The position numbers were made by a program, and so were the translations under genes. The notes below the pieces were generated by a model. That model searched no databases, was not told the origin of the DNA, and saw nothing but the letters and a program-made list of their open reading frames with translations. From Pseudomonadota bacterium (GTDB lineage Bacteria > Desulfobacterota > Desulfobacteria > Desulfobacterales > JBDRRP01), in contig JBDRRP010000050.1 in the NCBI GenBank assembly GCA_043825735.1, positions 62,001 through 95,545 of the forward strand: 33,545 nt of DNA, written 5' to 3'. Of this stretch, positions 4,846 through 28,861 are shown one piece after another. Every line of letters begins with the position of its first letter. The first letter of the stretch is position 1.

Positions 4846-5134
4846 GCCGGACGAAAACCGTCCCTTCTGGGGATTATGACACAGCCTCGAAGGCCTGAAT
4901 CCTGAGGTTTCGGTCAGTCCTGGACTGTCTTGGAAAACCGATGCCTCCTACCGGGTTCCAGGCGAAAAGCACCTGCTTGCGCAGGAGTGACGGGCATTGG
5001 GTTTACTAAAAAGCCCGAAAGCGCAACGAGCAACAGTGCGCTGAGGTAATCCGTTAAAAATACTAAGTCCCCTCTGCGGTTCGAACTAATGTTGGGTGCG
5101 CAGCCTTTGGATTCCACAATCAACAGGAGCTGAT

Positions 5135-6274: not shown

Positions 6275-6330
6275 TGGTTTTACCTAAAAGCGCTCCCGTC
6301 ATGACACGTTTCTCCGAAAGCGAGTTTCAC

Positions 6331-8748: not shown

Positions 8749-8913
8749 ATGGTGCGGTTGCAGACCAAAGATTCAATGCATCGGCCCGTTTTTGAAAAGG
8801 TGAACCTGGCTATGCACTATTCTCCAGTGGATGGGCGAGATCGAATTGGGCAAACAAGACGAGTCGTTGCAACGAAGCATCCATGCATGCAAAACCATAT
8901 GGGAACCCAAACC

Positions 8914-11900
8914 ATGCGAAAGATTATACTCATCGGCATCATCGCGAGTTCTTTCCTTCTCACCAACGGATGGGCTGCCGAAGCGCCCGGCGAAGCGTAT
9001 CTGGCCCAGACCATGGAGTGCCGCTTCACGCCGGAGCTGACCGCGCTGGCCGAAAGCCTCGATCACGATCCGGTGAGCATTTATAACTGGGTCTACGAGA
9101 ACGTGGCGTATGAGGACTACCGCTGCTCCAGAAAGGGCGCGCGCTCGACGTATCTTTCCCGCCGAGGAAACGAGTGGGACCAGAGCAGCCTGCTGATCAC
9201 CCTGTTGCGCATCTCGGGTATTCACGCCAGGTATCGCCAGATCGGCGGAGATGCGCGAGTTATCGTGGAAGCATGGCTGCCCACCGCCAACTACCGCGGA
9301 ATGCCGTTTGGCGATGAAAAGGATTGGATTCCCCTGATCCCCTGGCTCAAGAATACGCGCAAAACAGCCGGAATCGATCTCTTCGAAAACGACGTGATCC
9401 CGCCGGCCCTGGCGTTCGATTTCGACGGCTACCTCACCCAGCACCGGCAGAAAACCGCCATCGAGCTTTTTCAGGAAAGCGTCCGCGATTACCTGGCGGC
9501 CAATTACCCGGACAAGACCATTAAGGATGTGCCGGCCCGCGAAACACTGATTCAGCGCCCGCTCGCGGTGCTGCCGTCAAGCCTTCCTTTGGCCATCGAT
9601 CGCGTGGCTGAAAGCGCCTATTACGACGCAGTCCCTGAATCGGAACGTGAAAGCATCACGCTGTATATCAAAAACGAAGCAGGCGGTGCGGTGCTTTTAG
9701 AGAGAGAAATTTATCTGCCGGAGGTGGCCGGGCGACGATTCACTCTGGAATTTAATCAGGGCGCGGCCGGCTGGTTGATCCCGGTATTCAAACTCGACGA
9801 CGAGATCATTCAGGAAGGCGCTGCCATTCTTGCAGATGCCAATTTTTTCCCGGCTTTCGAGAGCGATTGGTATGCATATACGGCAAGGCCGTCGAAGAAT
9901 GCAGGTACTTATATGCTCATGGCGTTTGACCCGCTATCGGCCTCAGAAAACGACGTCGAAATGCTCAAGGACGAACTGGGTCAGTTGAGCGCCTCAATGG
10001 TATTGGACCCTGCCACCCGCGGGCAGTATCTCGGCCGCATCGCATCCGTCATCATGAACACCTATCTGATACGCTACCTGCAGAATACAAATGCGGCGGC
10101 CGACCTCCTACACCTGGGCCTAATTTATGCCGGGCAATGTCCGACGTTCATTTATACGTCAACGGATAACCTACCCACCGTGTCGGATGCTAAATTCATT
10201 GTACATCCTCAATGGAGTTTCGATTCATTTTTTGCCTCGGTGAAAGCCTATCATGCCGATGACCCGCTTAGGACGCTCATCGACAACAGCTCACCGATGG
10301 CCGAATTGCTGTGCAAGCTTTATATGTTCAGTGCCTCTTACAATGAAGGACGCATTTTCGAAGACTGGCAGGATACAAAAGCCTTGAGCACGATCCGGGG
10401 CATCATGGCGGCCCACGAGCAGGGAATACCAGTGGTTGATCTGACGGCCGCGGATATCGTTAACGACACGATTCCTGTTCTTGCCAACCAGAGCACGAAC
10501 AAGTTGCCGGATGGGGTGATCGCCGGAATGGTGGATGAGCTTCAGGAAGGGCAGGAGATCAAGACACCCGTCCAGAGCATCGGTTTTGAAGATATTAACG
10601 GCTATGTTTACCTGAGCTATGGGCCGACTTACAGCAGCTATGTCTTCAATGGAGATATGGGGGCAAAGGCTGTCCTCAATGCGCTGGAGAGCGTTAGAAC
10701 GGCTTTAAAAGGAGAGCTGCCGCCGGACCTGCAGGCCATTTACGACAAGTACAAAGGAAAAGATAGCAACGGGGCTGAAGTCATACAAAATAGCAAGGCC
10801 GATGAGAATAAAAGCTTTGCCGGCGCGATTGCCAGTTTCATTGGCGATCCAATTGATATGGTTACCGGGGAGTTTTATGCGGAAGAGCAGCCGGATATCA
10901 ACATACGCGGCCGTGGCCTGCCGCTGAACGTGACACGCAAGTACCGAAGTCAGCTGCTGTACAACGGCCCTTTTGGTTACGGCTGGACGTGGAATCACTC
11001 AGACGAACTGATAGTGTATGATGGGGGCGATGTCGTTTACAACAATACAGATGGCAAGCACATATACGTTTCGTACGATGCCACCGAAGGTTACCAATAC
11101 CCCCCCGGCATGACCTTTACCCTGGTGCAGACCGCTATTGGTTACGAGATCCACAACAAAGATCTCAGCAAAATCTATTTCGATGCCAACGGTCGCCTCG
11201 TATCCAAAGCTGACCCTGATGGCAACACGCTGAGCTTTGCCTACGATGCAGAGGGGCACCTGTCCACCATCACAGACGATCTGGGCCGCAGCCTCACGTT
11301 CATCGTCGGCGCCAATGGCAAGATCACCCGGGTCACCGACTTCACCGGGCGATACTGCGAGTATGCCTACAGCGGCGACGACTTGATCAGTTTCACTGAC
11401 CTCGAGGGAAACACCACAACCTTCGAGTACTATGCCGATCTCGACAACCCTCAGAACCTTCACAATCTCACCAAGTACATCCTGCCCACCGGCGACTACC
11501 TTGAAATCGGTTACTACAAAAACGACCAGGTGGCCTTTCACAGAAACAAAAAGGGCGAGGTCTTCAACTTCCAATACAGCCGGCTCAACAAATACGGCGA
11601 GACCTGGAACGAGGAAGGCTACTACCGCAAGGTTTTCTTCAACGACCAGAACGATGTCATCCGCATCACCAACGAGGATAAAACCCTCGAAACCATGACC
11701 TATGACACCAATCACAACAAGCTCACCCACACCGATGCCAACGGGCACACCACCACCTTCACTTACGACGACAAACGCAACCTCACCTCGAAAACCAACG
11801 CGCTGAATGAGGCTTGGGCTTATGTCTACAGCAACCCACTTGTCAACAAGCCCACTGCGGTCACAGACCCACGCGGGAACACTACGCAGTATGAATATAA

Positions 11901-14900
11901 TGCACAGGGCCGCGTTACTAAAAAGACCGACGCGCTTTTGAACGAAACCGATTTCAACTACGATCAGTACGGCAACCTGGTCCAGGTCACCGACGCCCTA
12001 AACCACTGGGAAGCTTTCGTCTACGACGCCAACGGCCTCCACCTGGTATCGAGCCTCGATAAAAACGGCAACGAGACGCACTTCGCCCATGATGCCATCG
12101 GGCGGGTCGTCTCCGCCACCGACTCCCAGGGGCATGCGACCCAGTTCGCCTTCAACGCCTACGACCAGAAGACCGTGGTCACAGATGCCCTGGGCAACCA
12201 GACGTCTATCACCTACAACGCCGTCCGCCAGCCGGTATCGCAAACCGACGCCAGGGGCGGGGTCACCCGGATAATTTATGACACCGCCCGAGACATAGTG
12301 ACCGGTGCCAAGGTAAAAGAAAAGATCGACCCGTTGGGGTACCGCGAGTACTTCTACCATGACCGCGTGGGGAATCTGGTCTGGCAGGAGGACAAAAAAG
12401 GCAACATACACACATTCGTTTACGACGGCCTGGGCCGCCGGACCGAAACCATCGATCCTTTCAAAAACGTTGTCCGCGACCGTTACGACGGCAGCGGCAA
12501 CCGTGTCGAAAGCATCGATAAGCGCGGGTTTGTCACCGGCTATGCGTTCGATGCCGAAAACCGGCCCACCAGCGTTACGGATCCTCTGGGAAATACGGTC
12601 ACCAATACCTACGATGCCAACGGCAACCTAAGCACAGTGACGGATGCCAACGGCATTGTCACCCGTCTTGAATACGATGCGCTGAACCGTATGGTCCAAA
12701 AAACCCTGGCCTACGGCAGCGCCGATGCCGCAGTGTTTCAATACGAATACGATGCCCTGGGCCGGCTCACAAAGACGACCAATCCACTCGGTCACTATGA
12801 AACCTACGGTTACGATGCCAACGGCAACCGCGTAAGCATTGCCAAGTACCAGTCCGATGGTTCCCTGCTGGCCACCCAGGCGTTCGAGTACGACGCCCGC
12901 AATTTACCTTTTGAGGAGACCGGACCGACAGGATCTGCGACAACCTATGAATACGATGCCATGGGCCGAAAGACCGCCATGATCGATCCGGCCGGAAACC
13001 GCACCGAGTATGCCTACAACGAGACGGGTAATCTGGTGGCCGTGACCGATCCGCTCTTTAACATCATAAAGCATGAATATGACCTGCGAGGGCAGCGCGT
13101 GCTTACAATCGATGCCGAAGGCGGCGAAACTGCCTATCGCTACGATGGCAACGGCAACCTCGTCTGGCAGCGCGATGCCGATGGCAACGAGACAGGGATT
13201 TTCTACGATGCGTTAAACCGGAAAATCGGTATCCGGGACGCGGTGGGCGCCGAAACCAGCTTCGACTACGATCCTGCAGGCAACCTCATCGCACAAAACG
13301 ACGCCAACGGCGGTGTGACGCGTTTTGAGTACGATGCGGTTGGGCGGAAAGTGAAGACGATTCGCCCGATGGGTGAGGCGTTCAGTACAGAATATGACGC
13401 CGCGGGAAACAAGACAGCCGTCATTGATGCCATGGGGCAGAAAACCGCTTACAATTACAACGATCTGTACCAGATCGAAACCGTCTCCTATTATGCCGCC
13501 GCCGATTGGGTGACGCCGGTAAAAACCGTTTCGTTCACCTACGATGAAATGGGCAGCCTGCTGTCCTATGACGACGGCACGACTTCGGCCCTTTACGGCT
13601 ACGATGCCCTTGGCCGTAAGACCGCCGAGTCAGTGGATTACGGCCCCTTCGCCCTGAACCATTCCGTCACCTACCGGGCCGATGGCCAGAAAGCCTCCTA
13701 TACGGGACCGGACAATGCCACCGTCAGCTATGGCTATGACGCCTACGACCGCTTGACCGATATCAACTTGCCTGGAGGCGCCCAGGTGAGCTATGCCAAT
13801 TTCGAGTGGAACCGTCCAACGACGGTAGCAATGCCTGGCGGCGTTACTACCACATACGCATATACGGCAAAGCAACAGGTTGCCGCGATCACCACAACAG
13901 ACGGCGCTGCCTCGACCATATTCAGCCGGCATTACGAGTACTCGCCGGCGGGCAACATTACGGCAAAGCACTCCGAGCACGGCACCTACACCTACCAGTA
14001 CGACGCCGTGAACCAGTTGACCCAGGCAAACAACCCGACCTTATCGGGAGAAGCTTATGGCTACGACCTGTTAGGCAATCGCATGAGCACTGCCACTGCC
14101 AGCGGGTTCACCTACGATTTGAATAACCGGTTGTTGGCCCATGATGGCACAACGTTTGATTATGACCTAAACGGCAATACGACCTCGAAAACGACCGGTG
14201 GGGTCTTCACCCGTTTTTATTACGACACCTCGGATCGATTGGCCCGCGTGGCAGACAGTGGTGGCGGCACCATCGCTGAATACAGCTACGATCCCTTCGG
14301 GCGCAGGCTTTGGAAGGATGTCGGTGGCACGCGAACCTATTTCTTTTATACCGATGAAGGCCTGTCCTGCGAGTACGGTGTTACTGGGCAGGAACTGAGG
14401 ACCTACGGTTACCGGCCGAATCCGGGGTGGACCACCGCACCGGTGTATATGATAGAGGCCGGAGTCTACTATTACTACCTAAATGACCACCTGGGTACCC
14501 CGCAAAAGGTGGTTGACTCTGCAGGAGGCGTTGCTTGGGAGGCTATATTTGAAAGCTTCGGTGTTGCGCATGTGGCGGGTGGTGCGGTCGTTATAAACAA
14601 CGTGCGGTTTCCGGGCCAATACTACGATGCAGAAACAGAATTGTATTACAATTGGAACAGATACTATGATCAAAAGATTGGAAGGTATTTGAGAAGTGAC
14701 CCCGCAGAGGATGGGGTCAACCTTTATCTCTATGTTCGCAATAATACGATAAGATTTTTTGACCCAAACGGCTTAACAACATTAGCCAGAGCCCAATGTG
14801 GTATAGTAAACGGGGGTAAAACTGTTGGTGGCGGATATATGAATTGTCGTATTAGGACAGAATGCCGGGGGGGCTCTCAGCAAGTGGCAATGTATGAGGC

Positions 14901-15240
14901 AACTTTTGCAGGTGGAACGTACGGTGATAATGTTGTCAGTGCTATTTGGACGTATTATGATTTAGAGTTCTATGATATTAGCCAATTAAACGGCAACGTT
15001 TCAATGGTTTCAGCTACAGTTGCGGCTGGCGTAGGTTTTACTTACGGTAATGCGTGCTTTGGGAGAGTATGCGTAAATAACTCAGCAAACCCGGTGATGG
15101 GTATTGGATATGGGCCTACACTTCCGGGTTTGGAGGCGACATTAGATGCCTTTTTCGGTGCCGGTAGTATAACAATAATAGGGGATGTGAACTGCTCAAA
15201 TGAAGAGACGGAATTAATACTGGCACCTGAGATGCCATAA
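8914..15240 (+). CDS. Rhs/YD-repeat polymorphic toxin with signal peptide, transglutaminase-like N-terminal domain, DUF6531-like segment, Rhs core and 154-aa C-terminal toxin tip
   Basis: Signal peptide MRKIILIGII...GWA. IYNWVYENV..GNEWDQSSLLITLLRISGIHARY; GDPIDMVTGEF..GPFGYGW; dozens of YD repeats; DHLGTP, RFPGQYYDAET..YNWNRYY..GRYLRSDP; DPNGL at 14761-14775. ORF is open from 8749. Confidence 0.93.
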   Translation: MRKIILIGIIASSFLLTNGWAAEAPGEAYLAQTMECRFTPELTALAESLDHDPVSIYNWVYENVAYEDYRCSRKGARSTYLSRRGNEWDQSSLLITLLRISGIHARYRQIGGDARVIVEAWLPTANYRGMPFGDEKDWIPLIPWLKNTRKTAGIDLFENDVIPPALAFDFDGYLTQHRQKTAIELFQESVRDYLAANYPDKTIKDVPARETLIQRPLAVLPSSLPLAIDRVAESAYYDAVPESERESITLYIKNEAGGAVLLEREIYLPEVAGRRFTLEFNQGAAGWLIPVFKLDDEIIQEGAAILADANFFPAFESDWYAYTARPSKNAGTYMLMAFDPLSASENDVEMLKDELGQLSASMVLDPATRGQYLGRIASVIMNTYLIRYLQNTNAAADLLHLGLIYAGQCPTFIYTSTDNLPTVSDAKFIVHPQWSFDSFFASVKAYHADDPLRTLIDNSSPMAELLCKLYMFSASYNEGRIFEDWQDTKALSTIRGIMAAHEQGIPVVDLTAADIVNDTIPVLANQSTNKLPDGVIAGMVDELQEGQEIKTPVQSIGFEDINGYVYLSYGPTYSSYVFNGDMGAKAVLNALESVRTALKGELPPDLQAIYDKYKGKDSNGAEVIQNSKADENKSFAGAIASFIGDPIDMVTGEFYAEEQPDINIRGRGLPLNVTRKYRSQLLYNGPFGYGWTWNHSDELIVYDGGDVVYNNTDGKHIYVSYDATEGYQYPPGMTFTLVQTAIGYEIHNKDLSKIYFDANGRLVSKADPDGNTLSFAYDAEGHLSTITDDLGRSLTFIVGANGKITRVTDFTGRYCEYAYSGDDLISFTDLEGNTTTFEYYADLDNPQNLHNLTKYILPTGDYLEIGYYKNDQVAFHRNKKGEVFNFQYSRLNKYGETWNEEGYYRKVFFNDQNDVIRITNEDKTLETMTYDTNHNKLTHTDANGHTTTFTYDDKRNLTSKTNALNEAWAYVYSNPLVNKPTAVTDPRGNTTQYEYNAQGRVTKKTDALLNETDFNYDQYGNLVQVTDALNHWEAFVYDANGLHLVSSLDKNGNETHFAHDAIGRVVSATDSQGHATQFAFNAYDQKTVVTDALGNQTSITYNAVRQPVSQTDARGGVTRIIYDTARDIVTGAKVKEKIDPLGYREYFYHDRVGNLVWQEDKKGNIHTFVYDGLGRRTETIDPFKNVVRDRYDGSGNRVESIDKRGFVTGYAFDAENRPTSVTDPLGNTVTNTYDANGNLSTVTDANGIVTRLEYDALNRMVQKTLAYGSADAAVFQYEYDALGRLTKTTNPLGHYETYGYDANGNRVSIAKYQSDGSLLATQAFEYDARNLPFEETGPTGSATTYEYDAMGRKTAMIDPAGNRTEYAYNETGNLVAVTDPLFNIIKHEYDLRGQRVLTIDAEGGETAYRYDGNGNLVWQRDADGNETGIFYDALNRKIGIRDAVGAETSFDYDPAGNLIAQNDANGGVTRFEYDAVGRKVKTIRPMGEAFSTEYDAAGNKTAVIDAMGQKTAYNYNDLYQIETVSYYAAADWVTPVKTVSFTYDEMGSLLSYDDGTTSALYGYDALGRKTAESVDYGPFALNHSVTYRADGQKASYTGPDNATVSYGYDAYDRLTDINLPGGAQVSYANFEWNRPTTVAMPGGVTTTYAYTAKQQVAAITTTDGAASTIFSRHYEYSPAGNITAKHSEHGTYTYQYDAVNQLTQANNPTLSGEAYGYDLLGNRMSTATASGFTYDLNNRLLAHDGTTFDYDLNGNTTSKTTGGVFTRFYYDTSDRLARVADSGGGTIAEYSYDPFGRRLWKDVGGTRTYFFYTDEGLSCEYGVTGQELRTYGYRPNPGWTTAPVYMIEAGVYYYYLNDHLGTPQKVVDSAGGVAWEAIFESFGVAHVAGGAVVINNVRFPGQYYDAETELYYNWNRYYDQKIGRYLRSDPAEDGVNLYLYVRNNTIRFFDPNGLTTLARAQCGIVNGGKTVGGGYMNCRIRTECRGGSQQVAMYEATFAGGTYGDNVVSAIWTYYDLEFYDISQLNGNVSMVSATVAAGVGFTYGNACFGRVCVNNSANPVMGIGYGPTLPGLEATLDAFFGAGSITIIGDVNCSNEETELILAPEMP

Positions 15241-15275
15241 TCGAATAAATCGGTCAAAATATGAATTGATAGAAA

Positions 15276-15770
15276 ATGAATACTAAATATTTTATTCTAC
15301 TATTATCATTATTAATTGTTGAAATGACGTTATTGGCAAGATGGAATAGACTGTACTTGCGATATGGTCTCCCAATTTACTTCAAGAAAATAGCCCTAAA
15401 TAATACTTTTAATGACGGAGCATCTAAAAAAATAAATGGTGCACTCAAATGCTTGCCTATTGGTTATGAGTATAGAGAGATAGAAAATAATGTATTTGCT
15501 TTACGAGACAGTTTCGCTCGGTTTTCAGCGAATTCACTTATGCGAGGAATAATTATCTATGATTCGAAAAATAATACAGTTCGTATATATGGGCATCTCT
15601 ATTTATCGATCGTTGCGATTTTTGCATTTGTTCTGTCGGTACTCGGCCCTGCTGTAATTCCCTTTTGTATAATTATCTTTAGTATACCATATATAAGAAA
15701 CAGAATTGATTTCAATAAAATTGCCGATATCATCAAAAATACAAGGGACACCCATTTGGAGCAATGGTAG
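15276..15770 (+). CDS. Putative immunity protein (membrane) for the main Rhs toxin
   Basis: AT-rich small ORF 35 bp after the toxin stop; N-terminal and two C-terminal hydrophobic segments. Confidence 0.7.
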   Translation: MNTKYFILLLSLLIVEMTLLARWNRLYLRYGLPIYFKKIALNNTFNDGASKKINGALKCLPIGYEYREIENNVFALRDSFARFSANSLMRGIIIYDSKNNTVRIYGHLYLSIVAIFAFVLSVLGPAVIPFCIIIFSIPYIRNRIDFNKIADIIKNTRDTHLEQW

Positions 15771-15960
15771 AGTAGAGGGCAGATCAGAGGGAAGACATAA
15801 GGGTCACCCATTAAAGGACTCGTCAAGTAAATTGAAATGGGGTCGCACCGAGATATCCTATTGCAAACACACATATTATCATCCAAATTATAGGTGTTTG
15901 TATAGGCTATTTCGTCCTTTTCGGGGCCAAAAACGGTCATATAGAAAAAGCGAAGACATA

Positions 15961-16633
15961 AGGCTCAAACCTACACATTGACAAAACGATTTGTGTATCG
16001 ACCGAGCAAAATATCAATGTAAACTTTAACCGAACAGCCCTACGGATGGCCCGTCAATTACGTATAGAATACCCAGGTGCGTATTACCATGTGACTTCTC
16101 GCGGTAATGAGCGAAAGGCTGTGTATAAAAGCCGGCGCGATTGCGAGCAGTTTCTATCCTATTGGGATATTTTGGAGAAAATGTATTCGAAGCCATGCAA
16201 AGGTACCAACGTTTCCTGGGTTCTGTTAGCGGCGCAGAACTGATCAGTCCTCGGAAGGAGAGGCTTCATTCCGTAATACTGGGCAGTCAGGAATTTATTG
16301 ATAATATAAAGAAGCAATATTTAAGCCATATAGAGCCAGATCGCGAACTGCCTGAGCTAAATGATCAGCCTAATAAAATCGGTATTGAAGACATTGAAAA
16401 TGCTGTGAACAAAGTGTTCGGTACAGACAAAAGGCTTGCCCGCCAAGTGAAACTGTATCTAAGCCACCGATACACTGGTCTTAAACTTAAGGAAATAGGC
16501 CAGTGGTATAGAATTGGGCAATCCGGTGTCACTCAGGCAAGCCGTAGAGTTCAGAATCGTATTGACATGGATCGGAAATTCAAGCGCACCGTTTTGAAGG
16601 CTAAGCGGTTTGTCAATGTGTTGGTTTGACCCC
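15961..16633 (+). mobile_element. Defective RAYT-like (Y1/IS200 superfamily) element bounded by 25-bp imperfect inverted repeats
   Basis: AGGCTCAAACCTACACATTGACAAA (15961-15985) versus the reverse complement of 16609-16633 (GGGGTCAAACCAACACATTGACAAA): 22/25 match. Confidence 0.75.
16046..16629 (+). pseudogene. Internally deleted RAYT-type tyrosine transposase with C-terminal DnaA-like HTH
   Basis: The N-terminus MARQLRIEYPGAYYHVTSRGNER jumps near 16155 into another frame encoding ILGSQEF...LYLSHRYTGLKLKEIG (HTH). HUH motif and catalytic Tyr region are absent. Confidence 0.8.
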
Positions 16634-16770
16634 TATTTCCTGTGGGTGGGATCGGCACTGCAGGTGCGGAAGTTGGTGGGTATGCAGAGGGCTTATTTCA
16701 TGGCCTTATGTCAGGGGCCACGAATGAGGCAAGCGAATATGCGCCGGATGTTATAGGAGCGATGTTTTGA
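16634..16770 (+). pseudogene. Probable remnant 3' end of an orphan toxin tip
   Basis: Startless open frame VGGIGTAGAEVGGYAEGLFHGLMSGATNEASEYAPDVIGAMF* whose TGA (16768-16770) overlaps the TTG start of the next gene. Confidence 0.5.
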
Positions 16771-17024
16771 ATTTACTAAATTTATACTTTAAACTTCGCA
16801 AAGTCTTCTTTATTTTTATCTTCGTATCATTGCCAGCATATTTTTTAATTATGGGCCTCATATTTAAAGGAAAAACAGGCCTATGGGCTGGGATATTCTT
16901 TCTGTTTATACTGCTAATATTTGACTTATACTTCTATAAATGTCAAAGCTGCAGAAAGAGAAATTTCATGAATGAGCATGATAGAATATGTAAGTTTTGT
17001 GGTCGAGATTATCAAAATCTATGA
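16767..17024 (+). CDS. Small membrane protein with C-terminal CxxC...CxxC (putative immunity protein)
   Basis: Two hydrophobic helices then CQSC...CKFC; AT-rich; AGGAG upstream. Confidence 0.6.
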   Translation: MNLLNLYFKLRKVFFIFIFVSLPAYFLIMGLIFKGKTGLWAGIFFLFILLIFDLYFYKCQSCRKRNFMNEHDRICKFCGRDYQNL

Positions 17025-17094
17025 GAGAGTGTTGGGCGAGGGTAATAGGGGACACCGCGTGCGATTCCGGGTCGATAGATTGGGGGTCGGGTTC

Positions 17095-18099
17095 CGGGTC
17101 GGGCCACGCTATGAGATCAATATTGCACAAATAGTTGGATAGGCATTGTCTAAATGAAGCCCTTAATCGAGCAGTTTTCCCCGAAAACTGCATTGTTAAG
17201 AAAGTCGGCTCACAATGGCACGCGCAAAAAGGCATTACATCCCCGGTCATGCCTGGCATATCACCCAACGCTGCCATAAAAGAGACTTTCTTCTCAAATT
17301 CCCCAGAGATCGACGAAGATGGATCGAGTGGCTTTATCGAGCCAGGAAAAAGTATCCAGGTCTGAGTGTGTTGGATAATATGGTCACCTCAAACCACATC
17401 CACCTGCTGGTGTATGATACCGGCGGCCGGAACGTGATCCCCGATTCAATCAAGTTGATAGGGGGCCGAACAGGTCAGGAGTACAATATACGTAAAAACA
17501 GAAAGGGTGCTTTCTGGGAAGACCGCTATCATGCAACCGCCGTGGAGAGTGGCCGATATTTAAGGCAATGCATCGCCTACATAGATATGAACATGGTTCG
17601 CGCCGGTGTTGTAAAGCATCCATCCGAGTGGGGTTTTTGTGGTTATAACGAGATCCAGAACCCTCGGAAGAGAAAGGGGATCATCGATTTTAATCGACTG
17701 ATTGGATTGTTGGGCTTGGAGAGCTACGAAGATTTAAAGGATTCCCATTTCAAATGGATTGAGAGCAGAATCGAGAAAGCTTCCAGTAAAAGGGAACTCA
17801 AGTGGAGCCAGAGCGTTGCAGTAGGTAGTGCAGAATATTTAGAAAAGATAAAAAGGAATCTTGGTTTTAGAGCCAAGGGAAGAAAGATCATCGACAGTGG
17901 CGGAATCTTTGAACTAAGAGAAGGGTTGGAACCATGTAGGTTCCCGGATCGTCTGGGTTGCACGAATATTTCGCGATGGAATAAACGCTAGTCAGATAAC
18001 CGGCCGGTTTTGGGATAAAACTGGCCAATTAAGCAGGAAATATCGCTAGAAAATATAATCTTTTCACGACTTGTCAGTAAGTTGCTGCGGCCCGACCCG
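17095..18099 (+). mobile_element. RAYT-like element bounded by 11-bp inverted repeats
   Basis: CGGGTCGGGCC (17095-17105) / GGCCCGACCCG (18089-18099). Extra GGGTCG copies at about 17068 and 17084. Confidence 0.65.
17215..17991 (+). CDS. RAYT-type Y1 HUH transposase, apparently intact
   Basis: MARAKRHYIPG..WHITQRC; HUH motif SNHIHLL; RKGAFWEDRYHA; catalytic-Tyr segment AYIDMNMVRAGVVKHP. Confidence 0.88.
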   Translation: MARAKRHYIPGHAWHITQRCHKRDFLLKFPRDRRRWIEWLYRARKKYPGLSVLDNMVTSNHIHLLVYDTGGRNVIPDSIKLIGGRTGQEYNIRKNRKGAFWEDRYHATAVESGRYLRQCIAYIDMNMVRAGVVKHPSEWGFCGYNEIQNPRKRKGIIDFNRLIGLLGLESYEDLKDSHFKWIESRIEKASSKRELKWSQSVAVGSAEYLEKIKRNLGFRAKGRKIIDSGGIFELREGLEPCRFPDRLGCTNISRWNKR

Positions 18100-18113
18100 A
18101 ATCCGCGAATCAC

Positions 18114-19013
18114 GCTGTCGTTACAAATAACTTGCGTTTTCCTGGGCAGTACTACGATATTGAAACAGGATTACATTACAATTGGAATCGGTATTTTGAT
18201 CCAATTACAGGTAGATATTTTAGGAGTGACCCTGCTGAAGATGGAATAAACATATATATGTATGCACAAAATAACCCCACAGCATCGTATGATCCAGAAG
18301 GCCTTATGGCGAAAGAAGCTTACAATAAATGGGAAGGCATTTCTGTTGATATTTGCAGCACAGCATTTGATCATTGGTATCCGATTACTCAAGAAGGATA
18401 CGCTAATGCAATAAAATACTGGTACTATACAGATTCAGGTGTAAATATTATTAACAACATTGTTGATGAGTTAAATTATAGCTATACTTGGAATAAGAAT
18501 TTCTTTGCGAGTTCAAATAATGTATTTGAGAGAGGCTTTGATATAAGAAATTATACTAATAAGTATACCGTCCTCGGCTATAATACAGGTGGAAGCTACA
18601 CAGGGATAGGAACAAAATTCGCTATCAGTTCAGCAATAACGTTCGATTGGTCTGGAAATTTGACGTACACTTCTTCTATTGATGCAGGGGCGGGTCAAGG
18701 AAGAGATTTAAGCCTTTTTGGAAATGTTATTGTCGGCATTGGTCGGGGGCTTACTTCATCGAAGTTTGGAGAAAACTCTTTCTCCGTCTCAGGGAGTCAC
18801 CATATAACGGAAACGGTTGCCCTAACAGGTGCTGTGACCACCCCAATTGATAAAACTAATAACGGTGATTGGCATTTCGTTGAGTCGGGACTATCATTTA
18901 GTACCCCTTGGGGAACGAAAGGAGAGATTGGCGAAACCATAGGAAAAGGAGAGTCATATACAATCAACCTGGTAGATGTTCTTAATAATATATTTGAATA
19001 TAATCCACAATAG
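18114..19013 (+). CDS. Orphan Rhs core fragment plus alternative 235-aa toxin tip
   Basis: AVVTNNLRFPGQYYDIETGLHYNWNRYFDP..GRYFRSDPAEDGINIY; DPEGL at 18291-18305. Possible TTG start at 18132, no clear RBS; probably a silent cassette. Confidence 0.85.
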   Translation, partial: AVVTNNLRFPGQYYDIETGLHYNWNRYFDPITGRYFRSDPAEDGINIYMYAQNNPTASYDPEGLMAKEAYNKWEGISVDICSTAFDHWYPITQEGYANAIKYWYYTDSGVNIINNIVDELNYSYTWNKNFFASSNNVFERGFDIRNYTNKYTVLGYNTGGSYTGIGTKFAISSAITFDWSGNLTYTSSIDAGAGQGRDLSLFGNVIVGIGRGLTSSKFGENSFSVSGSHHITETVALTGAVTTPIDKTNNGDWHFVESGLSFSTPWGTKGEIGETIGKGESYTINLVDVLNNIFEYNPQ

Positions 19014-19025
19014 CATTGATATATT

Positions 19026-19460
19026 ATGATCATTTTCGTGTCCATTTTATTGCTCATTGTAGGGTTTCTTCTAATAGATATATTCTTAATCGGATTTATT
19101 CCTAGCCTTTTAGGTATTTATCCTTCTTATCTAAAAATTAAGAGGGATATTCTCATTGAGGACAGGTCATTCGAATATGGCGTTGATACCAATCTCTTTC
19201 CTTTTTATAAAGTAATATTGAAATCTATATTAATCACGAAAAAACGCCTGTATGTTAGACACACCTACTTGGCCTGTGCAAGAACTATTCGAATAGATCA
19301 AATATGCGGTTTTCAAATTAGCAATCCAATTTTATTCAGTGGGCGTAGAGTCAAGCTACTGATAAAAGAGGAAAATGAGATCAAGTATTTTTCATTTAGA
19401 ACAAAAATTCCAAATGAATGGGTCAAAGTTTTACATGAGGTTGGGATACATCAAATTTAG
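19026..19460 (+). CDS. Putative immunity protein (N-terminal membrane anchor) for the orphan toxin
   Basis: 12 bp after the orphan stop; AT-rich; hydrophobic N-terminus; ITKKRL segment suggestive of a PH-like beta domain. Confidence 0.65.
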   Translation: MIIFVSILLLIVGFLLIDIFLIGFIPSLLGIYPSYLKIKRDILIEDRSFEYGVDTNLFPFYKVILKSILITKKRLYVRHTYLACARTIRIDQICGFQISNPILFSGRRVKLLIKEENEIKYFSFRTKIPNEWVKVLHEVGIHQI

Positions 19461-19615
19461 TGAAAAACAAAAGGGTTACCCAGTAAAGAACGTGTCAATA
19501 GAGAAAACACCTCATCATAGGAGTTTTGAAGCCCAGTTTTTTGTTGTACACCAATACATGGAATTGTGGAAACAATGAAGCAAAGGGGTCACATCTTAAA
19601 TGAGGAGAAGGGGAT

Positions 19616-19876
19616 GTCCATGAATAAATAACTATCTTTAAATCTGCCGGTGCGCGCTGAAATGGTGTAGGGCTGAGATATCAATTTCGCCTTAAAGCAG
19701 AGTACGCGTTCACGGGGATCCATTGGGATAAGGCAACGACCCGCCTACACCCAAGCCAGATTCGGGGGCGCTCCCAGAAAATATGAGCGGATGGGGGAAA
19801 TGGACGTCCATGAATAAATAACTATCTTTAAATCTGCCGGTGCCCGCTGAAATAGTGCAGCGCTGGGTATCAATTT
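19616..19876. repeat. Direct repeat of about 70 bp with 190-bp period
   Basis: GTCCATGAATAAATAACTATCTTTAAATCTGCCGGTGC is identical at 19616-19653 and 19806-19843, continuing imperfectly to TATCAATTT. Confidence 0.9.
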
Positions 19877-19972
19877 AGCCAGGAAATCGAGATTGTCCAA
19901 AATAGTATTTATTGCAATCACTATTGGCAGGAAAGAGATTTGATATCGCAGTAACATCAGGGGGGATTCTCA

Positions 19973-20695
19973 ATGAAAAGATTTGTGGTTTACAGTATTA
20001 TCGTTGTGGTTTTGATTTCGCTGCTTTCTGTTGCTGCCGATGCTGAAGACGTCGTTGTTGAGTTGTCTACCGATGACGGTTCTTCCGGTCTGGTGATCAA
20101 AAACTCAGCCGGTATCGTTGTTGCCCGTATTGACTCTAAAGGCAGCTTTATTCAAAACGCGGGCCCTGTTGTGCCGCCTGGCGCCGTAATGGCCTTTGCC
20201 ACGGGAAACCCGCCAACAGGATGGTTGCACTGCAACGGGGCGGCCATCTCAAGAACTGATTATGCAGACCTTTTTGCCGCCATCGGAACGATGTACGGAA
20301 GCGGAGACGGTAGCACTACTTTCAACTTACCAGATTACCGGGGACAGTTTCTTCGTTCTTGGGACAATTCGGCAGGTCAAGACCCGGACAGAGCTAATAG
20401 AGCTGACAGAGGTGACGGGACTACCGGTGATAACGTCGGTACAAGACAGGCCGGCCAGTTGGCTTCTCATCACCATAGTGTCTCGGTGGCAGCAGCCGGC
20501 GGACACTCACACACTGTTGCTGGCGGCAGTGTCCTTTCGGATTATGGTGGCGGCGGCGTTGTTCGATACAGCGGGACATCCAGCGCGACAACCAGCGCCG
20601 CAGGCAGCCATGGTCATGCCGTGAGCCAGAGTTCAGTCGGTGGCAACGAAACGCGGCCGAGGAATGTCTCGGTGATGTGGGTGATCAAATTATAA
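19973..20695 (+). CDS. Signal-peptide-bearing phage tail-collar domain fibre protein
   Basis: Signal peptide ending AADA; collar motif PPGAVMAF..P.GWLHCNGAAISRTDYADLFAAIGTMYG.GDGSTTFNLPDYRG.F; HxH motifs (SHHH, GHSH, SHGH); terminal ETRPRNVSVMWVIK. Confidence 0.9.
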   Translation: MKRFVVYSIIVVVLISLLSVAADAEDVVVELSTDDGSSGLVIKNSAGIVVARIDSKGSFIQNAGPVVPPGAVMAFATGNPPTGWLHCNGAAISRTDYADLFAAIGTMYGSGDGSTTFNLPDYRGQFLRSWDNSAGQDPDRANRADRGDGTTGDNVGTRQAGQLASHHHSVSVAAAGGHSHTVAGGSVLSDYGGGGVVRYSGTSSATTSAAGSHGHAVSQSSVGGNETRPRNVSVMWVIKL

Positions 20696-23485: not shown

Positions 23486-24436
23486 CTACTTGATTTCACC
23501 ATTGAGCAGCAGGTGCAACAGCGCCATGCGGATGTAGAGGCCGTTTTTCGCCTGGCGGAAATAGTGGGCGCGGGGGTTATCGTCGACGTCAGCGGGAATT
23601 TCGTACAGCCGCGGCAGTGGGTGCATGATGATGGCCTCGGGCTTCATCATTTCGGCCTTTTCCTGAGTAAGGACGTACTTGCCGGAGGCCTCCTTGTACT
23701 GGTCCGGATCGACGAACCGCTCTTTCTGGATACGGGTCATGTATACGCAGTCGGCCACCGGCAGGACGTTGTCCAGAACGGCTTCCTCCTCCCACTGGAT
23801 GTCGTGGCGATCCAGATACTCCTTGATATCGGCTTCCATCCGGCACACCGAAGGCGAGACGAAGACGATCCGGATATCTTCGTATTTGGCCAGCAGGTAG
23901 CACAGGGAGCGGACCGTCCGTCCGTATTTCAGATCTCCCACCAGGGCGATGGTCAGGCCGGCGATGTGTTTGAAGTGGTCCTTGATGGTAAACAGGTCGA
24001 GCAGTGCCTGGGTCGGGTGCTGCCCGCTGCCGTCGCCGGCGTTGATGATGGGGATCGTGGACACGTCCGCGGCCTTTTTAGCGCTGCCGGCTTCGTGGTG
24101 GCGCATGACGATGATGTCGGCATAGCCGTTCATGATGCGGGTGGAGTCGATGAGGCTCTCCCCTTTAGCCGCACTGGAGAATTCCCGGGCGTTTTCCGTT
24201 GTGATGATCCTGCCGCCCAGCCGCAGCATGGCGCTTTCAAATGAAAACCGGGTACGCGTGGAGGGCTCGTAGAACAGCGAGGCCATGATCTTGTCCTCGA
24301 GGGCGGAGGCCAATCGCCGCGGATGCGCGGCCAGATCTACCTTCATGGCGTCTGCCGTCCGAAATACCGTGTCCAGCAGATCCCGGTCGAATTGCTGAGA
24401 TTCGTAGATGTGATCCAGTGGAAAGGTGCTCGTCAT
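23486..24436 (-). CDS. pyrB: Aspartate carbamoyltransferase catalytic subunit
   Basis: FYEPSTRTRFSF, KGESL.D, NAGDG..QHPTQALLD, GDLKYGRTV, TRIQKERF, MHPLPR. RBS GGAGGGAG before ATG 24436. Confidence 0.95.
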   Translation of the reverse strand: MTSTFPLDHIYESQQFDRDLLDTVFRTADAMKVDLAAHPRRLASALEDKIMASLFYEPSTRTRFSFESAMLRLGGRIITTENAREFSSAAKGESLIDSTRIMNGYADIIVMRHHEAGSAKKAADVSTIPIINAGDGSGQHPTQALLDLFTIKDHFKHIAGLTIALVGDLKYGRTVRSLCYLLAKYEDIRIVFVSPSVCRMEADIKEYLDRHDIQWEEEAVLDNVLPVADCVYMTRIQKERFVDPDQYKEASGKYVLTQEKAEMMKPEAIIMHPLPRLYEIPADVDDNPRAHYFRQAKNGLYIRMALLHLLLNGEIK

Positions 24437-24530
24437 TGTCTTCTCCCTCCATGGTGCGCGCAGTGAACGGGGTGTCTGGTATTGTGGGTTGCCATCCTTG
24501 TGATCGCCCGCTCTTAATACAGACAAACTT

Positions 24531-24654
24531 GCATAAAAGCGATTGTGAACCACAGAGACCGCAGAGGATCGCAGAGAAACTATGAATAATTAATGAGTTG
24601 TCTCTGCGCTCTCTGCGTCCTCTGTGGTGATTCCAGACTTTTTACATGGCCATC
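24531..24654. repeat. Nested inverted-repeat element with the same architecture as 402-530
   Basis: ACCACAGAGACCGCAGAGGATCGCAGAGA / TCTCTGCGCTCTCTGCGTCCTCTGTGGT around an AT-rich spacer; outer arm GACTTTTTAC..CATC. Confidence 0.8.
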
Positions 24655-24658
24655 AACA

Positions 24659-25603
24659 TTATGCCCCGGTGATCTGAGTGCCGATGCCGGTATTTTCGAC
24701 GGCAGCGGCCAGGGTGTCCAGCCCGGTGATGACGGCGCGCTCGCCGCCGTCCCGGATAAACTGGCAGCATGCTTCCATCTTCGGCCCCATGGAGCCGGCC
24801 GAAAAATGGCCTTCATCGATATGGGCCTGCGCTTCGTCGGTGGTGATCCTGCCCAGCAGCCACTGCTCCGGGGATCCATAGTGCAGCAATGCGCCGGGAA
24901 CGTCGGTGACGATCACAAACAGATCGGCGCCGACTTCAGCGGCCAGACGGGCGCTGGCCAGATCCTTGTCGATGACGGCGTCCACCCCGTGAAACCCACG
25001 GCCGTCGCGCACCACCGGTATCCCGCCGCCCCCGCAGCAGATCACGATAAAGTCCAATTCGATGAGCTGTTTGATTTCCCGCTTCTCGATGATGGTCAGC
25101 GGCCTGGGCGAGGCCACTACCCGCCGGTAGCCCTTCGCCGTTTTTACCACCGGATAGCCGCACGTGGCAATGGCGTCTTCAGAGATCACCGGGCCGATGG
25201 GTTTGCTCGGCTGCGCAAAGCCAGGATCGGCGGCATCCACCACCACGTAGGTGATCAGCGTGATCAGCGGTCGGTAATCGATGCCGATGGCCATGAGTTC
25301 CTCATCGAGAGAGGATTCGATCATGTAGCCGATCTGCCCCTCGGTCTGGGCCACGAGGATCTCCAGGGGCATCCGGGGCACGCTCCCGCACTGCTCCTGC
25401 TGCAGCAGGAGGTTGCCCACCTGGGGGCCGTTGCCGTGGGTGATGATGATGCGGTAATGCCGGGACAGGGCGGCGATCTGGGCGACGGGGACCTGCAAGT
25501 TGGCAAACTGCTCCTCGATGGTGCCGGCCTGGCCCTTCTTGATCAGGGCATTGCCGCCCAGGGCGACGAGCAGGATCGGTTTTGGCCCTTGAGTGTCTGG
25601 CAT
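24659..25603 (-). CDS. arcC: Carbamate kinase
   Basis: VALGGNAL, THGNGPQVG, KPIGP, YRRVVASP, CGGGGIPV, VIDKD, GSMGPK. Confidence 0.96.
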   Translation of the reverse strand: MPDTQGPKPILLVALGGNALIKKGQAGTIEEQFANLQVPVAQIAALSRHYRIIITHGNGPQVGNLLLQQEQCGSVPRMPLEILVAQTEGQIGYMIESSLDEELMAIGIDYRPLITLITYVVVDAADPGFAQPSKPIGPVISEDAIATCGYPVVKTAKGYRRVVASPRPLTIIEKREIKQLIELDFIVICCGGGGIPVVRDGRGFHGVDAVIDKDLASARLAAEVGADLFVIVTDVPGALLHYGSPEQWLLGRITTDEAQAHIDEGHFSAGSMGPKMEACCQFIRDGGERAVITGLDTLAAAVENTGIGTQITGA

Positions 25604-25650
25604 GCTACGGTTTTTCCGTTGGCAGGAGGTTAAGATCCAAGGTGCTGTTT

Positions 25651-25677
25651 ACCACGAAGTGCACGAAGCACACGAAG
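25651..25677. repeat. 9-10-nt-period CACGAAG triple repeat
   Basis: ACCACGAAGTGCACGAAGCACACGAAG. Confidence 0.65.
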
Positions 25678-25730
25678 TAATTCGCTGTTATTTAACCACG
25701 CCATAAAGCGGAGTCGTCCTGGATTAAATG

Positions 25731-26153
25731 TTAGGGTTCATCGGATCTTATGATCAGTTGGATCCATTCTATAAACCTTGGGCCCTCATAAGGAAGAGAA
25801 TGATTGTATGCAGCCAAGTTGGATAATCCACGAGCGATACCTTGGATTGCTTCTCGAAGAAGATCAAATTGCTCGTATTCAGATTCTTTACCGGGCGTCC
25901 AGTGCTTCAGCCAATTGCGTGCTTTGTTAAGATGCTGCTGTGAAATGACTTTGCGTTCTATACTATGGGTTTGAGAAAAACCACGGATAAGGTCTTCATG
26001 CGCCGACTTAACGCCAAGCGCTTTCCCAAGAATTTCCTCAGCAGCACCTGCGAGTGTGATTGCAGGTATTGGCGCATCAAAATCAATAAGGAGACGTATC
26101 GCCCAGTCGAGTTGGTGGGATGCTGCTTCGACTTTTCCAACAGTATGTGTCAT
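25731..26153 (-). CDS. Hypothetical helical protein with RNxxxH motif (HEPN-like)
   Basis: 140 aa, visibly lower GC than neighbours; QLDWAIRL..AITLAGAAEEILG..ARNWLKH. Confidence 0.6.
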   Translation of the reverse strand: MTHTVGKVEAASHQLDWAIRLLIDFDAPIPAITLAGAAEEILGKALGVKSAHEDLIRGFSQTHSIERKVISQQHLNKARNWLKHWTPGKESEYEQFDLLREAIQGIARGLSNLAAYNHSLPYEGPRFIEWIQLIIRSDEP

Positions 26154-26159
26154 TGGGCT

Positions 26160-27500
26160 TTACGATCCCCTTCCGGGTTTTGCGATTTCGTTGAGCCTTT
26201 GCCTGATCAGCGCCGCCAGCGTCGGCGCTCCGTGGTCGCGGTATTCGTAGGTGACGCGGACCATGGGTTTCTCGATGCGCACCAGGCTGGCAAGATCAAT
26301 GGGCGTTGCCGACACCACCACATCGCAGTCGGTGCGGTTGATGGTGGCCTCCAGATCGGTGATCTGCCGCCTGCTGTAGCCCATGGCCGGCAGTACGTGG
26401 CCGATCGCGGGGTAGGCGGCGAACGTGTCTTTGATGGCACCGACCAGATAGGGCCTGGGATCCACCAGCCCGGCCGCGCCGTGACGGCGGGCGGCGATGA
26501 CGCCGGCGCCGAAGGCCATTTCTCCGTGAGTGAGCGTGGGGCCGTCCTCCACCACCAGCACGCGCTTGCCGGCAATGGCGCCGGGATTGTCCGCCAGCAC
26601 CTCGGATTCGGCAAGAATGATGGCCGCCGACGGGTTGTGCGCGGCGATGGTCTCCCGCACGGCCGCGACCTGGGCGGGCTCGGCGCTGTCCACCTTGTTG
26701 ATGACGGCGATATGGGCCATGAGCATGTTGGTCTCGCCGGGGTGGTAGGTGGTTTCGTGTCCGGCCCGGTGCGGGTCGAAGACCACGATATGGATGTCCG
26801 GCCGGTAAAAGGGCGTGTCGTTGTTGCCGCCGTCCCAGACGATGACGTCGGCTTCGGTTTCGGCCTGCCGCAGGATTTTTTCGTAATCCACCCCGGCATA
26901 GATCACCGCCCCCATGCGCACCACCGGCTCGTATTCCTCCCGCTCCTCAATGGTGCAGTTCTGGGCGGAGATATCGGCAAGGGTGGCAAACCGCTGCACT
27001 ACCTGGCGGGTCAAATCGCCGTAGGGCATGGGGTGGCGGACGACCACCACCGTTTTTCCCATGTCCTGAAGGATGCGCACCACCTGGCGGCTGGTCTGCG
27101 ACTTGCCGCAGCCGGTGCGCACCGCGCAGACCGATATGATGGTCTTGTTTGAGGCGAGCATGGTGTACGGGGCGCCGATGATGATGAAGTCCGCGCCGGC
27201 CGCGGTGACGATGGAGGCCTTGTGCATCACTTCGGTGTGGCGCACATCGCTGTAGGAAAATGCCACCAGATCCACTTTTCGGTCACGGATCACGGCGGCG
27301 AGCTGACTGTCGGCAACGATGGGGATCCCCTCGGGGTAAAAAGATCCGGACAGCTCTGGCGGGTACTGGCGGCCGTCGATGTCGGGGATCTGAGTGGCGG
27401 TAAAGCACACCACCCGGTAACGCGGGTTGTCTCTGAAGTAGACGTTGAAATTGTGAAAGTCGCGCCCGGCCGCACCCATGATGATGACGTTTTCGATCAA
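26160..27500 (-). CDS. P-loop NTPase of the cyclic-2,3-diphosphoglycerate-synthetase-like family; probable arginine synthetase (ArcE-like)
   Basis: IMGAAGRDFHNFN, AVRTGCGKSQT, RHPMPYGDL, TIEEREEYE, WDGGNND, VEDGPTLTHG, PAMGY; lies between arcB and arcC. TTG start at 27500 after GGAGGG. Confidence 0.8.
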   Translation of the reverse strand: MIENVIIMGAAGRDFHNFNVYFRDNPRYRVVCFTATQIPDIDGRQYPPELSGSFYPEGIPIVADSQLAAVIRDRKVDLVAFSYSDVRHTEVMHKASIVTAAGADFIIIGAPYTMLASNKTIISVCAVRTGCGKSQTSRQVVRILQDMGKTVVVVRHPMPYGDLTRQVVQRFATLADISAQNCTIEEREEYEPVVRMGAVIYAGVDYEKILRQAETEADVIVWDGGNNDTPFYRPDIHIVVFDPHRAGHETTYHPGETNMLMAHIAVINKVDSAEPAQVAAVRETIAAHNPSAAIILAESEVLADNPGAIAGKRVLVVEDGPTLTHGEMAFGAGVIAARRHGAAGLVDPRPYLVGAIKDTFAAYPAIGHVLPAMGYSRRQITDLEATINRTDCDVVVSATPIDLASLVRIEKPMVRVTYEYRDHGAPTLAALIRQRLNEIAKPGRGS

Positions 27501-27587
27501 CTGATGTATCCCTCCGTGCCTCGGCGTAACAGTTCTGGCGTGCGTAACGGCAATGCCCGTGTCAATCGGGTCTGGAAAAGGATCCAA

Positions 27588-27800
27588 GGATTCGAGGATT
27601 CAAGGGTTCAAGTGAACTGCCCACCCCAAATGATACCGCTTTGATGATGTGGGCTTGATGGGGGGCCTTTGCGCCCTCGGCCGCTACTTGCAACGATGGA
27701 TAGCCGTGATCCCATCCATATCTTGAAAATAAGCTAAAAGAGGCGAGTGGCGGTGGTGTGGTTTTAGGTTTTCCACTTGACCCCTTGAATCCTCGAATCC
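27588..27800. repeat. Inverted repeat of 8-nt-period units enclosing 159 bp
   Basis: GGATTCGAGGATTCAAGGGTTCAAGTG (27588-27614) versus CACTTGACCCCTTGAATCCTCGAATCC (27774-27800): 26/27 complementary. Confidence 0.85.
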
Positions 27801-27817
27801 TCGAACCCTGCATTCTT

Positions 27818-28819
27818 CTAATCTGCCAGCGTGGCCACCATGACGGCCTTGATGGTGTGCACCCGGTTTTCCGCCTGGTCGAAGACCACCGAGGCCGGAG
27901 ATTCGAACACGGAATCAGTCACCTCCATCGCTTCGAGGCCGAACTGCTGAAAGATCTTCTCGCCGATGTCGGTCTCCCGATTGTGAAAGGCCGGCAGGCA
28001 GTGGAGGAATTTCACTTTCGGATTGCCGGTCAGCGCCATGACCGTATCGTTGACCTGGTAGGGCTTGAGCAGCCGGATGCGCTCGGCCCAGACCGATTCG
28101 GGCTCTCCCATGGAGACCCATACATCGGTATAGAGAAAGTCGCAGCCTTTCACCCCGGCGCGCACATCGTCGGTGAGGGTGATGGTGGCGCCGTTTTTTT
28201 CGGCGATGGGCCGCACTTTCGCGACCAGTTCCGGATCGGGCTGGAGCGCAGTAGGCGCCACTGCGCGAAAATCGATTCCCATGAGCGCCGATCCCACCAT
28301 CAGCGAATTGCCCATGTTGTTTCTGGCGTCTCCCAGATAGGCCAGCGACATTTTCGACAACGGCTTGGTGCAGTGTTCCATCATGGTCAAAAGATCGGCA
28401 AGCACCTGGGTGGGGTGAAATTCGTCGGTGAGGCCGTTCCAGACCGGAACGCCGGCATGGGCCGCCAGGGTTTCGACCCGCTCCTGGGCGAAGCCTCGGT
28501 ATTCGATGCCGTCATACATCCGTCCGAGCACCCGGGCCGTGTCCTTGATCGACTCCTTCGAGCCCAACTGAGACCCGGATGGGTCAAGATAGGTGACCTG
28601 GGCCCCCTGGTCGTAGGCGGCAGTTTCAAAGGCGCAGCGGGTGCGGGTCGAGGTTTTCTCGAAGATCAGAACGATGTTTTTCCCTTTGAGGCGGGCGGTC
28701 CCCATCCCGGCTGCCCGGCCCCGTTTGAGCTCGGCCGCAAGGTCCAGCAGTGAGCGGATCTCGACCGGGGTAAAATCCAGCAGTTTTAAAAAGCTTCGGT
28801 GTTTCAGATTAGGTGTCAT
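27818..28819 (-). CDS. arcB: Ornithine carbamoyltransferase (ArgF/ArcB; catabolic role inferred from context)
   Basis: [57 protein letters not shown] before ATG 28819. Confidence 0.93.
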
Positions 28820-28861
28820 CGGCATCTCTCCGTTCGTGTCCATCCACAGGGTGGCGGGGCA

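Follow-up and report, generated by a model that had tools for sequence, protein, structure and literature searches.

TIRYT transposon ends as probable module junctions in an Rhs toxin/immunity-like array of a Desulfobacterales genome

The displacement of Rhs C-terminal tips has been explained by two homologous crossovers via a circle, in a paper whose available text also asks where the circular intermediate originates (Jackson et al., 2009, PMC2935791), and by homology-facilitated illegitimate recombination, the available text stating that evidence for an integrase was not found (Kirchberger et al., 2017, PMC5361080). Insertion sequence (IS) elements are mentioned in the available text of a further study only as disrupting orphans (Poole et al., 2011, PMC3150448). 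Here we describe an Rhs array in a stretch of 33,545 nucleotides (nt) from a Pseudomonadota bacterium of the Desulfobacterales (assembly GCA_043825735.1, contig JBDRRP010000050.1, positions 62,001 to 95,545; hereafter the window), in which the ends of TIRYT transposons, Y1-HUH elements bounded by terminal inverted repeats (TIRs), lie at the joints between toxin/immunity-like modules.

TIRYT elements, or TIRtrons, were described in 2013 as Y1-HUH transposons with the consensus GGGGWSAS (PMC3733652) and correspond to TnpA-Y1 subclass 2.1 of Quentin et al. (2018), present in 14.9% of strains, with Y1-HUH enzymes nicking and joining single strands via phosphotyrosine (PMC6006769). The available text of these two papers holds no TIRYT mechanism, cut site, target geometry or flanking duplication, and the word 'rhs' has no occurrence in the main text of PMC3733652. 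No paper linking TIRYT to Rhs was found in main texts, although such neighbours could be listed in the tables of PMC6006769 or, for PMC3733652, in Figure 9 and the additional files; the link is likewise absent from the available text of PMC3482391, PMC3150448, PMC11751169, PMC6329079, PMC5581495 and 10.1101/2024.07.17.603846. Subclass 2.1 TnpA-REP genes and fragments have been reported among prochlorosin genes, with diversifying recombination proposed and the causal claim later withdrawn (Laurenceau et al., 10.1101/2020.03.09.984088). In common with the present locus, transposases and fragments of this subclass are interspersed there with a diversifying gene family, but no inverted repeats were found and the genes face each other. 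Deletions and large duplications centred on IS elements have been described as rare events of the DDE elements IS5, IS150 and IS481 (Ngan et al., 2024, PMC11708052); in the available text they resemble the present case in having an element without a short target duplication at a deletion junction or between duplicated copies, whereas here a TIR-bearing HUH family is found repeatedly at toxin loci.

In the window, where features lie on the plus strand unless stated otherwise, the region 3′ of the rhs gene at 8749..15240 is AT-rich and holds three small open reading frames (ORFs), two transposase-like genes and one orphan Rhs tip. On balance we favour the view that TIRYT elements have colonised an Rhs toxin/immunity array and that the junctions between its modules are made of their ends, with transposase joins feeding tip displacement and homologous recombination exchanging tips. 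The rhs gene encodes a full-length protein of 2163 amino acids (aa) with transglutaminase-like, DUF6531, RHS repeat and core domains in Pfam and TIGR03696 in NCBIfam, ending in a 153-aa tip (14779-15240) for which the Atlas search returned unnamed clusters only. The orphan (18114..19013) consists of 65 core codons and a 234-aa tip (18309-19013), neither of the two tips matching a named family in NCBIfam and Atlas searches. The orphan core has 67% aa identity to the main Rhs, both proteins carry TIGR03696, and from its start at 18114 the orphan has 71% DNA identity to 14584-14772, confined to the core. The locus is thus an Rhs orphan array, a full rhs being followed by a core fragment that carries an unrelated tip. 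In the available texts C-terminal displacement likewise involves a full rhs with small downstream genes and with core fragments behind it that differ in length and bear unrelated tips; the present locus differs in that the non-homologous joint is made here by a specific HUH element end.

The sequence-only reading had placed four GGG(A/T)CACC-type motifs (15743, 15799, 17047 and 19471) and three GGGGTC sites (15839, 17083 and 19585) in this region, with a motif after every immunity gene. These coordinates and distances are correct, all four motifs lying within -25 to +31 nt of an immunity-like stop. Counted against the genome, GGG[AT][CT]ACC is found four times on the plus strand and never on the minus strand of 15241-19975, with 0.83 expected by the genome rate and 0.25 by low-GC tiles; the pattern was picked post hoc, making the nominal 2e-7 too strong. 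GGGGTC on its own shows no enrichment (3+1 observed, 2.36 expected genome-wide). The motifs belong to Y1-HUH elements, as had been supposed, and the ends mark junctions both here and in independent arrays, but they are the TIRs of TIRYT elements rather than cassette-specific sites.

By their sequence the elements are members of the TIRYT/TIRtron class, known since 2013. They resemble it, as far as the available descriptions go, in having a Y1-HUH transposase between TIRs instead of hairpins of repetitive extragenic palindromes (REP), in the consensus GGGGWSAS, in dimers and clusters of TIRs and, for element 1, in a possible DnaA-like helix-turn-helix (HTH) tail; element 2 differs in having YxxxNM in place of YxxxNP and no detected HTH. 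The consensus is matched fully at 17048 and 19585, the elements' own ends deviating at 1-2 positions, and other transposases of this family in the genome lie between inverted ends beginning GGGG(A/T)C. Four of the ends folded at -1.9 to -3.1 kcal/mol, element 2's right end at -5.0 and a 73-nt stack at -9.3; a REP-hairpin reading (canonical REPtron, RAYT groups 2/3) was rejected on these weak folds and the lack of a GTAG foot, and an attC reading of the motif on the same folding check.

A RAYT had been noted before each orphan toxin segment, which stands for the second element only. Element 2 has arms at 17096-17109 and 18087-18098 around an intact-looking Y1-HUH transposase gene (17215..17991; 258 aa), identified by Pfam, alignment and a structure model. 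The protein scores above the cut-off for Pfam Y1_Tnp and reaches 63 bits against NF047646, below the cut-off of 80 for that model, and its structure model has TnpA-REP 4ER8 as best fold match (E 4e-7). It keeps H61, H63, Y122 and N126, invariant across 42 homologs, and Pfam, NCBIfam and the model detected no HTH domain. Its activity is not assured because Asn replaces the nearly invariant Tyr55. The first RAYT is a broken remnant lacking the HuH/Tyr core, lying within a non-autonomous TIRYT element (element 1, 15955..16639) whose 37-nt TIRs (15955-15991 and 16603-16639) are 84% complementary. This internally deleted transposase gene (16046-16629) lacks approximately residues 54-170, including HuH and the catalytic Tyr, and retains a putative C-terminal DnaA-like HTH with a weak Bac_DnaA_C match below cut-off (E 6e-4); on its coding content element 1 is dead.

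Of the two orphan toxin segments that had been proposed behind these elements, the second bears an Rhs core and starts where claimed: the last C of element 2 is at 18098, 15 nt follow, and Rhs-core homology runs from 18114, so that the right TIR and outer tail (18087..18115) are joined to Rhs-core sequence. The first is a 44-codon open stub (16636..16770) that begins just beyond element 1's right end; it lacks an Rhs core, and a search for homologs found none. From its position, and by analogy with loci L254 and L163, it is probably the remnant of a toxin tip.

Each immunity-like ORF is accompanied by ends. The end GGGACACCCAT (15743..15756) lies inside the 3′ end of immunity-like ORF 1 (15276..15770; 164 aa) and supplies its last 9 codons; similar ends stand behind immunity-like genes in L179, L184 and L220. 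It is followed by an end of another TIR family (15792..15827), whose 24-nt core at 15801-15824 recurs identically behind an immunity-like gene on contig C6 of genome G041 (G041:C6) and is present in 6 of 301 genomes of the order, and by an inverted end fragment on the minus strand (15833..15950) from another TIRYT element of this genome, with identities of 96% to contig C58, 94% to C129 and 82% to the right end of the C31 element. Identical 12 bases (15792-15803 and 15952-15963) precede two different TIR ends 160 nt apart, and the stretch between them looks as if brought in with a 12-bp repeat. Behind immunity-like ORF 2 (16767..17024; 85 aa, hydrophobic, with a Cys-rich tail) stands a stack of TIR ends (17047..17109) made of GGGGACAC, which matches the TIRYT consensus in full, together with partial repeats and element 2's left TIR. 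Immunity-like ORF 3 (19026..19460; 144 aa) is followed by a terminal stack (19471..19601) that includes the 19471 motif and whose last part (19584-19601) is identical to the end of an approximately 100-bp TIR-bounded element on contig C70. A further TIR end (19604..19880) is present in two copies 190 nt apart, 87.5% identical over 88 nt, and is also stacked on the C31 element. None of the three ORFs has a Pfam or NCBIfam match above cut-off, a convincing homolog of the ORF at 16767-17024 is absent from the 301 genomes (best other E ~1e-3), and the functions of the ORFs, like the toxin role of the tips, are assigned by position.

At 8 of 15 end junctions examined, those with a close intact paralog, the target sequence starts 6-10 nt outside the terminal CCCC, and identical elements of G041 (an uncultured Desulfosarcina sp., the genome of L014) join rhs at different positions. 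A clean insertion, with the upstream rhs continuing across the element, was found at 0 of the 15 junctions; an ordinary IS in a G041 array interrupts rhs with continuity (residues 3814|3811). On contig C4 of genome G007 a complete element lies between two 100% identical 250-bp direct copies of rhs coding sequence that sit 6 nt outside each end, the left end being joined to downstream and the right end to upstream sequence, a geometry equal to the arrangement of immunity gene, element and core. Such a long perfect duplication would not be well explained by passive insertion. Other tandem duplications have one boundary at an end and vary in length between a few bases and several hundred, and the shorter end-anchored ones are common (574 nt on G041:C9, 345 and 200 nt in G007, and stutters at many loci). 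On G041:C11 (L120/L239, 269257-280821) the geometry is that of G007:C4: the end of a TIR-bounded 460-bp element, which lies behind cargo, is fused to the interior of a pilC-like gene, all within a tandem repeat of 5.5 kb and 99.8% identity that may be due to homologous recombination; the 3′ end of the pilC-like gene is duplicated, and the cargo is an 801-aa repeat protein.

The same anatomy is found elsewhere. The metagenome locus L163 reads immunity gene, ends, transposase, end, core, tip, immunity gene, end, transposase, end, stub, immunity gene and ends, and is a twin of the arrangement in the window, stub included; comparable anatomy is present on G007:C40 and on G041:C6, C9 and C15. In Rhs arrays of G041 one element is present in full four times, the copies being 100% identical as rounded, and these lie behind immunity-like genes and ahead of truncated rhs. 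In G007, of 100 listed TIR matches (111 in all; control 13), 32 are no more than 5 kb away from an Rhs core; they fall at 11 of 15 Rhs cores and in a share of the genome of at most 2.4% (hand count). Across 19 hand-picked cases, which are descriptive only, the first end is -36 to +169 nt from the stop with a median of 19, and transposase matches up to 3 kb downstream of a core are co-oriented with it in 19 of 23 cases and opposite in 4, two of the matches being the window's own. TIR pairs with usable flanks were obtained at 34 loci homologous to element 2, the script finding none at 29.

Other arrangements were seen beside these. L110-L112 (G041:C6 1-1800, 3719-10715 and 42372-45179) are three copies, two of them partial, of another element, which, as judged from sequence, has one long ORF that is primase-like and two that are tyrosine-recombinase-like. 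Each copy terminates in a piece of Rhs core, and the tip and immunity-like gene that come with it differ from copy to copy; this is possibly a second, integrase-type carrier of Rhs tips. At L331 3374-4950 (G007:C44) two genes of 35% GC, encoding 247 and 141 aa, lie between outward-facing TIR ends, a pair that looks like a toxin/immunity module without an Rhs core. Upstream of 6001 in L009 a TIRYT left end stands directly behind short direct repeats, which we take to resemble a CRISPR array.

According to the favoured reading, in which TIRYT ends form the module junctions, the transposase would nick the DNA slightly beyond the GGGG(A/T)C end, by a few bases, and the nicked end would be joined to a distant site with little sequence preference. 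A downstream join would cut the following module back until only part of its core, or a stub of its tip, is left, with selection halting the trimming at the immunity gene, and an upstream join would duplicate the unit of core, tip, immunity gene and element or excise it as a circle. Homologous recombination in the Rhs core could then import or swap tips, such that a crossover in the core combined with an end join would amount to C-terminal displacement whose non-homologous joint carries a TIR. Circle integration alone cannot yield stubs that lack core, and these call for trimming or a one-sided anchor.

How often ends accompany Rhs modules was surveyed with a loose motif, which has a background of 13-15% per gene end and was applied to mechanically called immunity ORFs, giving noise both ways. 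In the first set of 78 metagenome loci and 29 loci from relatives, some of them near duplicates, a sense-strand motif was near the stop in 27 of 83 scorable modules and an antisense motif in 6 of 83, with 12.4±3.4 (maximum 23) in 300 shuffles. Several observations weigh against the favoured reading. An independent phylum sample of 30 genomes gave 19 of 79 sense and 8 antisense, with shuffles at 13.8±3.1, which is not significant, and the long arrays of G313, G538, G504, G476, G438, G034 and G011 are mostly without ends, immunity gene and core abutting. Transposase homologs have an Rhs core nearby (up to 6 kb) at only 7 of 79 loci, 6 of them from G041, and the remaining 11 transposase matches of the present genome are on contigs without Rhs. 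The long flanking duplication is a single case among all loci examined, in a draft assembly (G007), with long flanking repeats at 0 of the 34 loci of the element 2 type. A genome-wide test for end-anchored repeats was not discriminating (GGGG[AT]C 0.0023 against up to 0.0026 for control hexamers). Several orphans (G041 C9, C2 and C6) begin behind the truncated interior of an element and not at an end, and in G419 a block of end, transposase start and rhs start is repeated three times, therefore a joint can arise once and then spread by recombination alone. The literature, in its available text, yielded no biochemical data on any TIRYT.

A first alternative is that the elements are passengers, with the arrays made only by homologous or homology-facilitated illegitimate recombination and TIRYT elements gathering in the neutral AT-rich gap behind immunity genes or patching breaks, their position reflecting selection and a taste for their own ends. 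The majority of arrays being without ends would fit this, as would the frequency of the same ends between ordinary genes in G007 (20 non-Rhs regions) and the 15801 end family, which at 16 of 17 loci lies beside toxin-antitoxin-like, ATPase-like and other non-Rhs accessory genes (names judged from sequence). Low-GC genes of the present genome carry the loose motif in sense at 33 of 232 and in antisense at 17, and the very low-GC genes also have a sense bias (13 vs 3 of 95). Moreover, duplications and deletions centred on IS elements are documented in the available text of PMC11708052, and these elements may have got there by entering existing breaks. However, elements inserting passively should also land in the orphans' neutral coding sequence, approximately 1 kb long, with continuity kept on both sides, as at the ordinary IS and at none of the 15 junctions, and the narrow 6-10 nt offset together with the 250-bp perfect duplication points to end-directed joining. 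We regard a pure passenger role as rather unlikely.

Integrons (compare PMC5361080) are built from IntI, attI and attC; their modules are ordered, each gene is followed by a repeated sequence, and older modules are displaced by newer ones. The sequence-only reading had proposed a dedicated HUH system of this type, in which the motif is the cassette site and the transposase captures and shuffles toxin/immunity cassettes. The likeness is in the ordered modules with a repeated sequence after each gene: each immunity-like gene of the window has an end behind it, the pattern is near-complete in G007 and G041, every module has a right end on one side and a left end on the other, which is how an excised circle containing one element would look, and the transposase genes are mostly co-oriented. 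The enzyme class is different, however, and there is no fixed insertion site and no cassette-specific hairpin; a scan of 11 ORFs (5096 to 20695) with Pfam and NCBIfam found no IntI tyrosine recombinase. The position of the joint varies along rhs, ends of several TIR families are mixed in one stack, the same ends stand beside non-Rhs genes, the transposase is usually unlinked to rhs, the phylum sample was not significant and most long orphan arrays examined in the phylum are without ends. The proposal in this form is improbable.

Nor did the reads, from one run with the locus that is possibly the assembly's source, contain an excised circle or alternative allele, and no orthologous locus was found in a close strain. 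Contig depth drops from 24 to 14.8 across 15921-19645; a deletion allele was rejected as the cause, with depth tracking GC in four contigs (24, 22.9, 18.2 and 14.8 at GC 0.55, 0.52, 0.47 and 0.41). A joint of 15849 to 19580 was not counted, having 21 nt on one side and 33 intervening letters of which a 19-nt piece is absent from G000. That the stutters and duplications are sequencing or assembly errors at inverted repeats, leaving simple co-location as the only real feature, is highly improbable: although draft assemblies underlie the window, G007 and the metagenome loci, and an N gap lies 0.9 kb away from the element on G007:C4, stutters at ends are also present in L009, whose record is titled complete genome, a single 3725-nt contig of the source run spans the junctions at 16633 and 18098 of the window, and the duplicated ends at 19604 and 19794 are old because they are only 87.5% identical.

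The flanks of the Rhs locus (5096-8748 and 19973-20695) contain genes with signal-peptide-like starts, with Pfam identifying a laminin-G-like protein, an Ig-like/squalene-cyclase-like repeat protein and a phage-collar-domain protein, which are possibly delivery or accessory parts. Further downstream (23486-28843) lies an ordinary cluster whose translations resemble aspartate carbamoyltransferase, carbamate kinase, a GTPase and ornithine carbamoyltransferase. At 27579-27809 there is a pair of 36-nt inverted repeats, 159 nt apart and made of short repeated units, with akin 8-nt stutters on C136, C145 and C155, and other kinds of dispersed intergenic repeats are found at 2523-2606, 24581-24655 and 427-506.

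Both the TIRYT class and this kind of Rhs array are known, and it is their coupling with a measurable junction geometry that appears to be undescribed. TIRYT elements are not required for Rhs arrays, and their role is probably opportunistic and limited to lineages where the element is abundant. A bolder and more tentative idea is that TIRYT might be the missing enzyme of the non-homologous half of C-terminal displacement in some lineages, joining its end, 6-10 nt outside GGGG(A/T)C, to upstream core to release a circle of core, tip, immunity gene and element, or to the recipient gene after a one-sided homologous anchor. It would thereby capture not only toxin/immunity modules but also the 3′ ends of other genes, pilC with its cargo being an example, and would be kept for diversifying competition loci. 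This locus and its relatives bear on both the displacement of orphan Rhs tips without deletion and the mechanism of TIRYT transposition. The cut site is predicted to be 5-10 nt outside GGGG(A/T)C, and the products to be end-anchored deletions, long duplications and circles; if true, this would be an unusual HUH transposase that works at symmetrical inverted repeats and not at hairpins.

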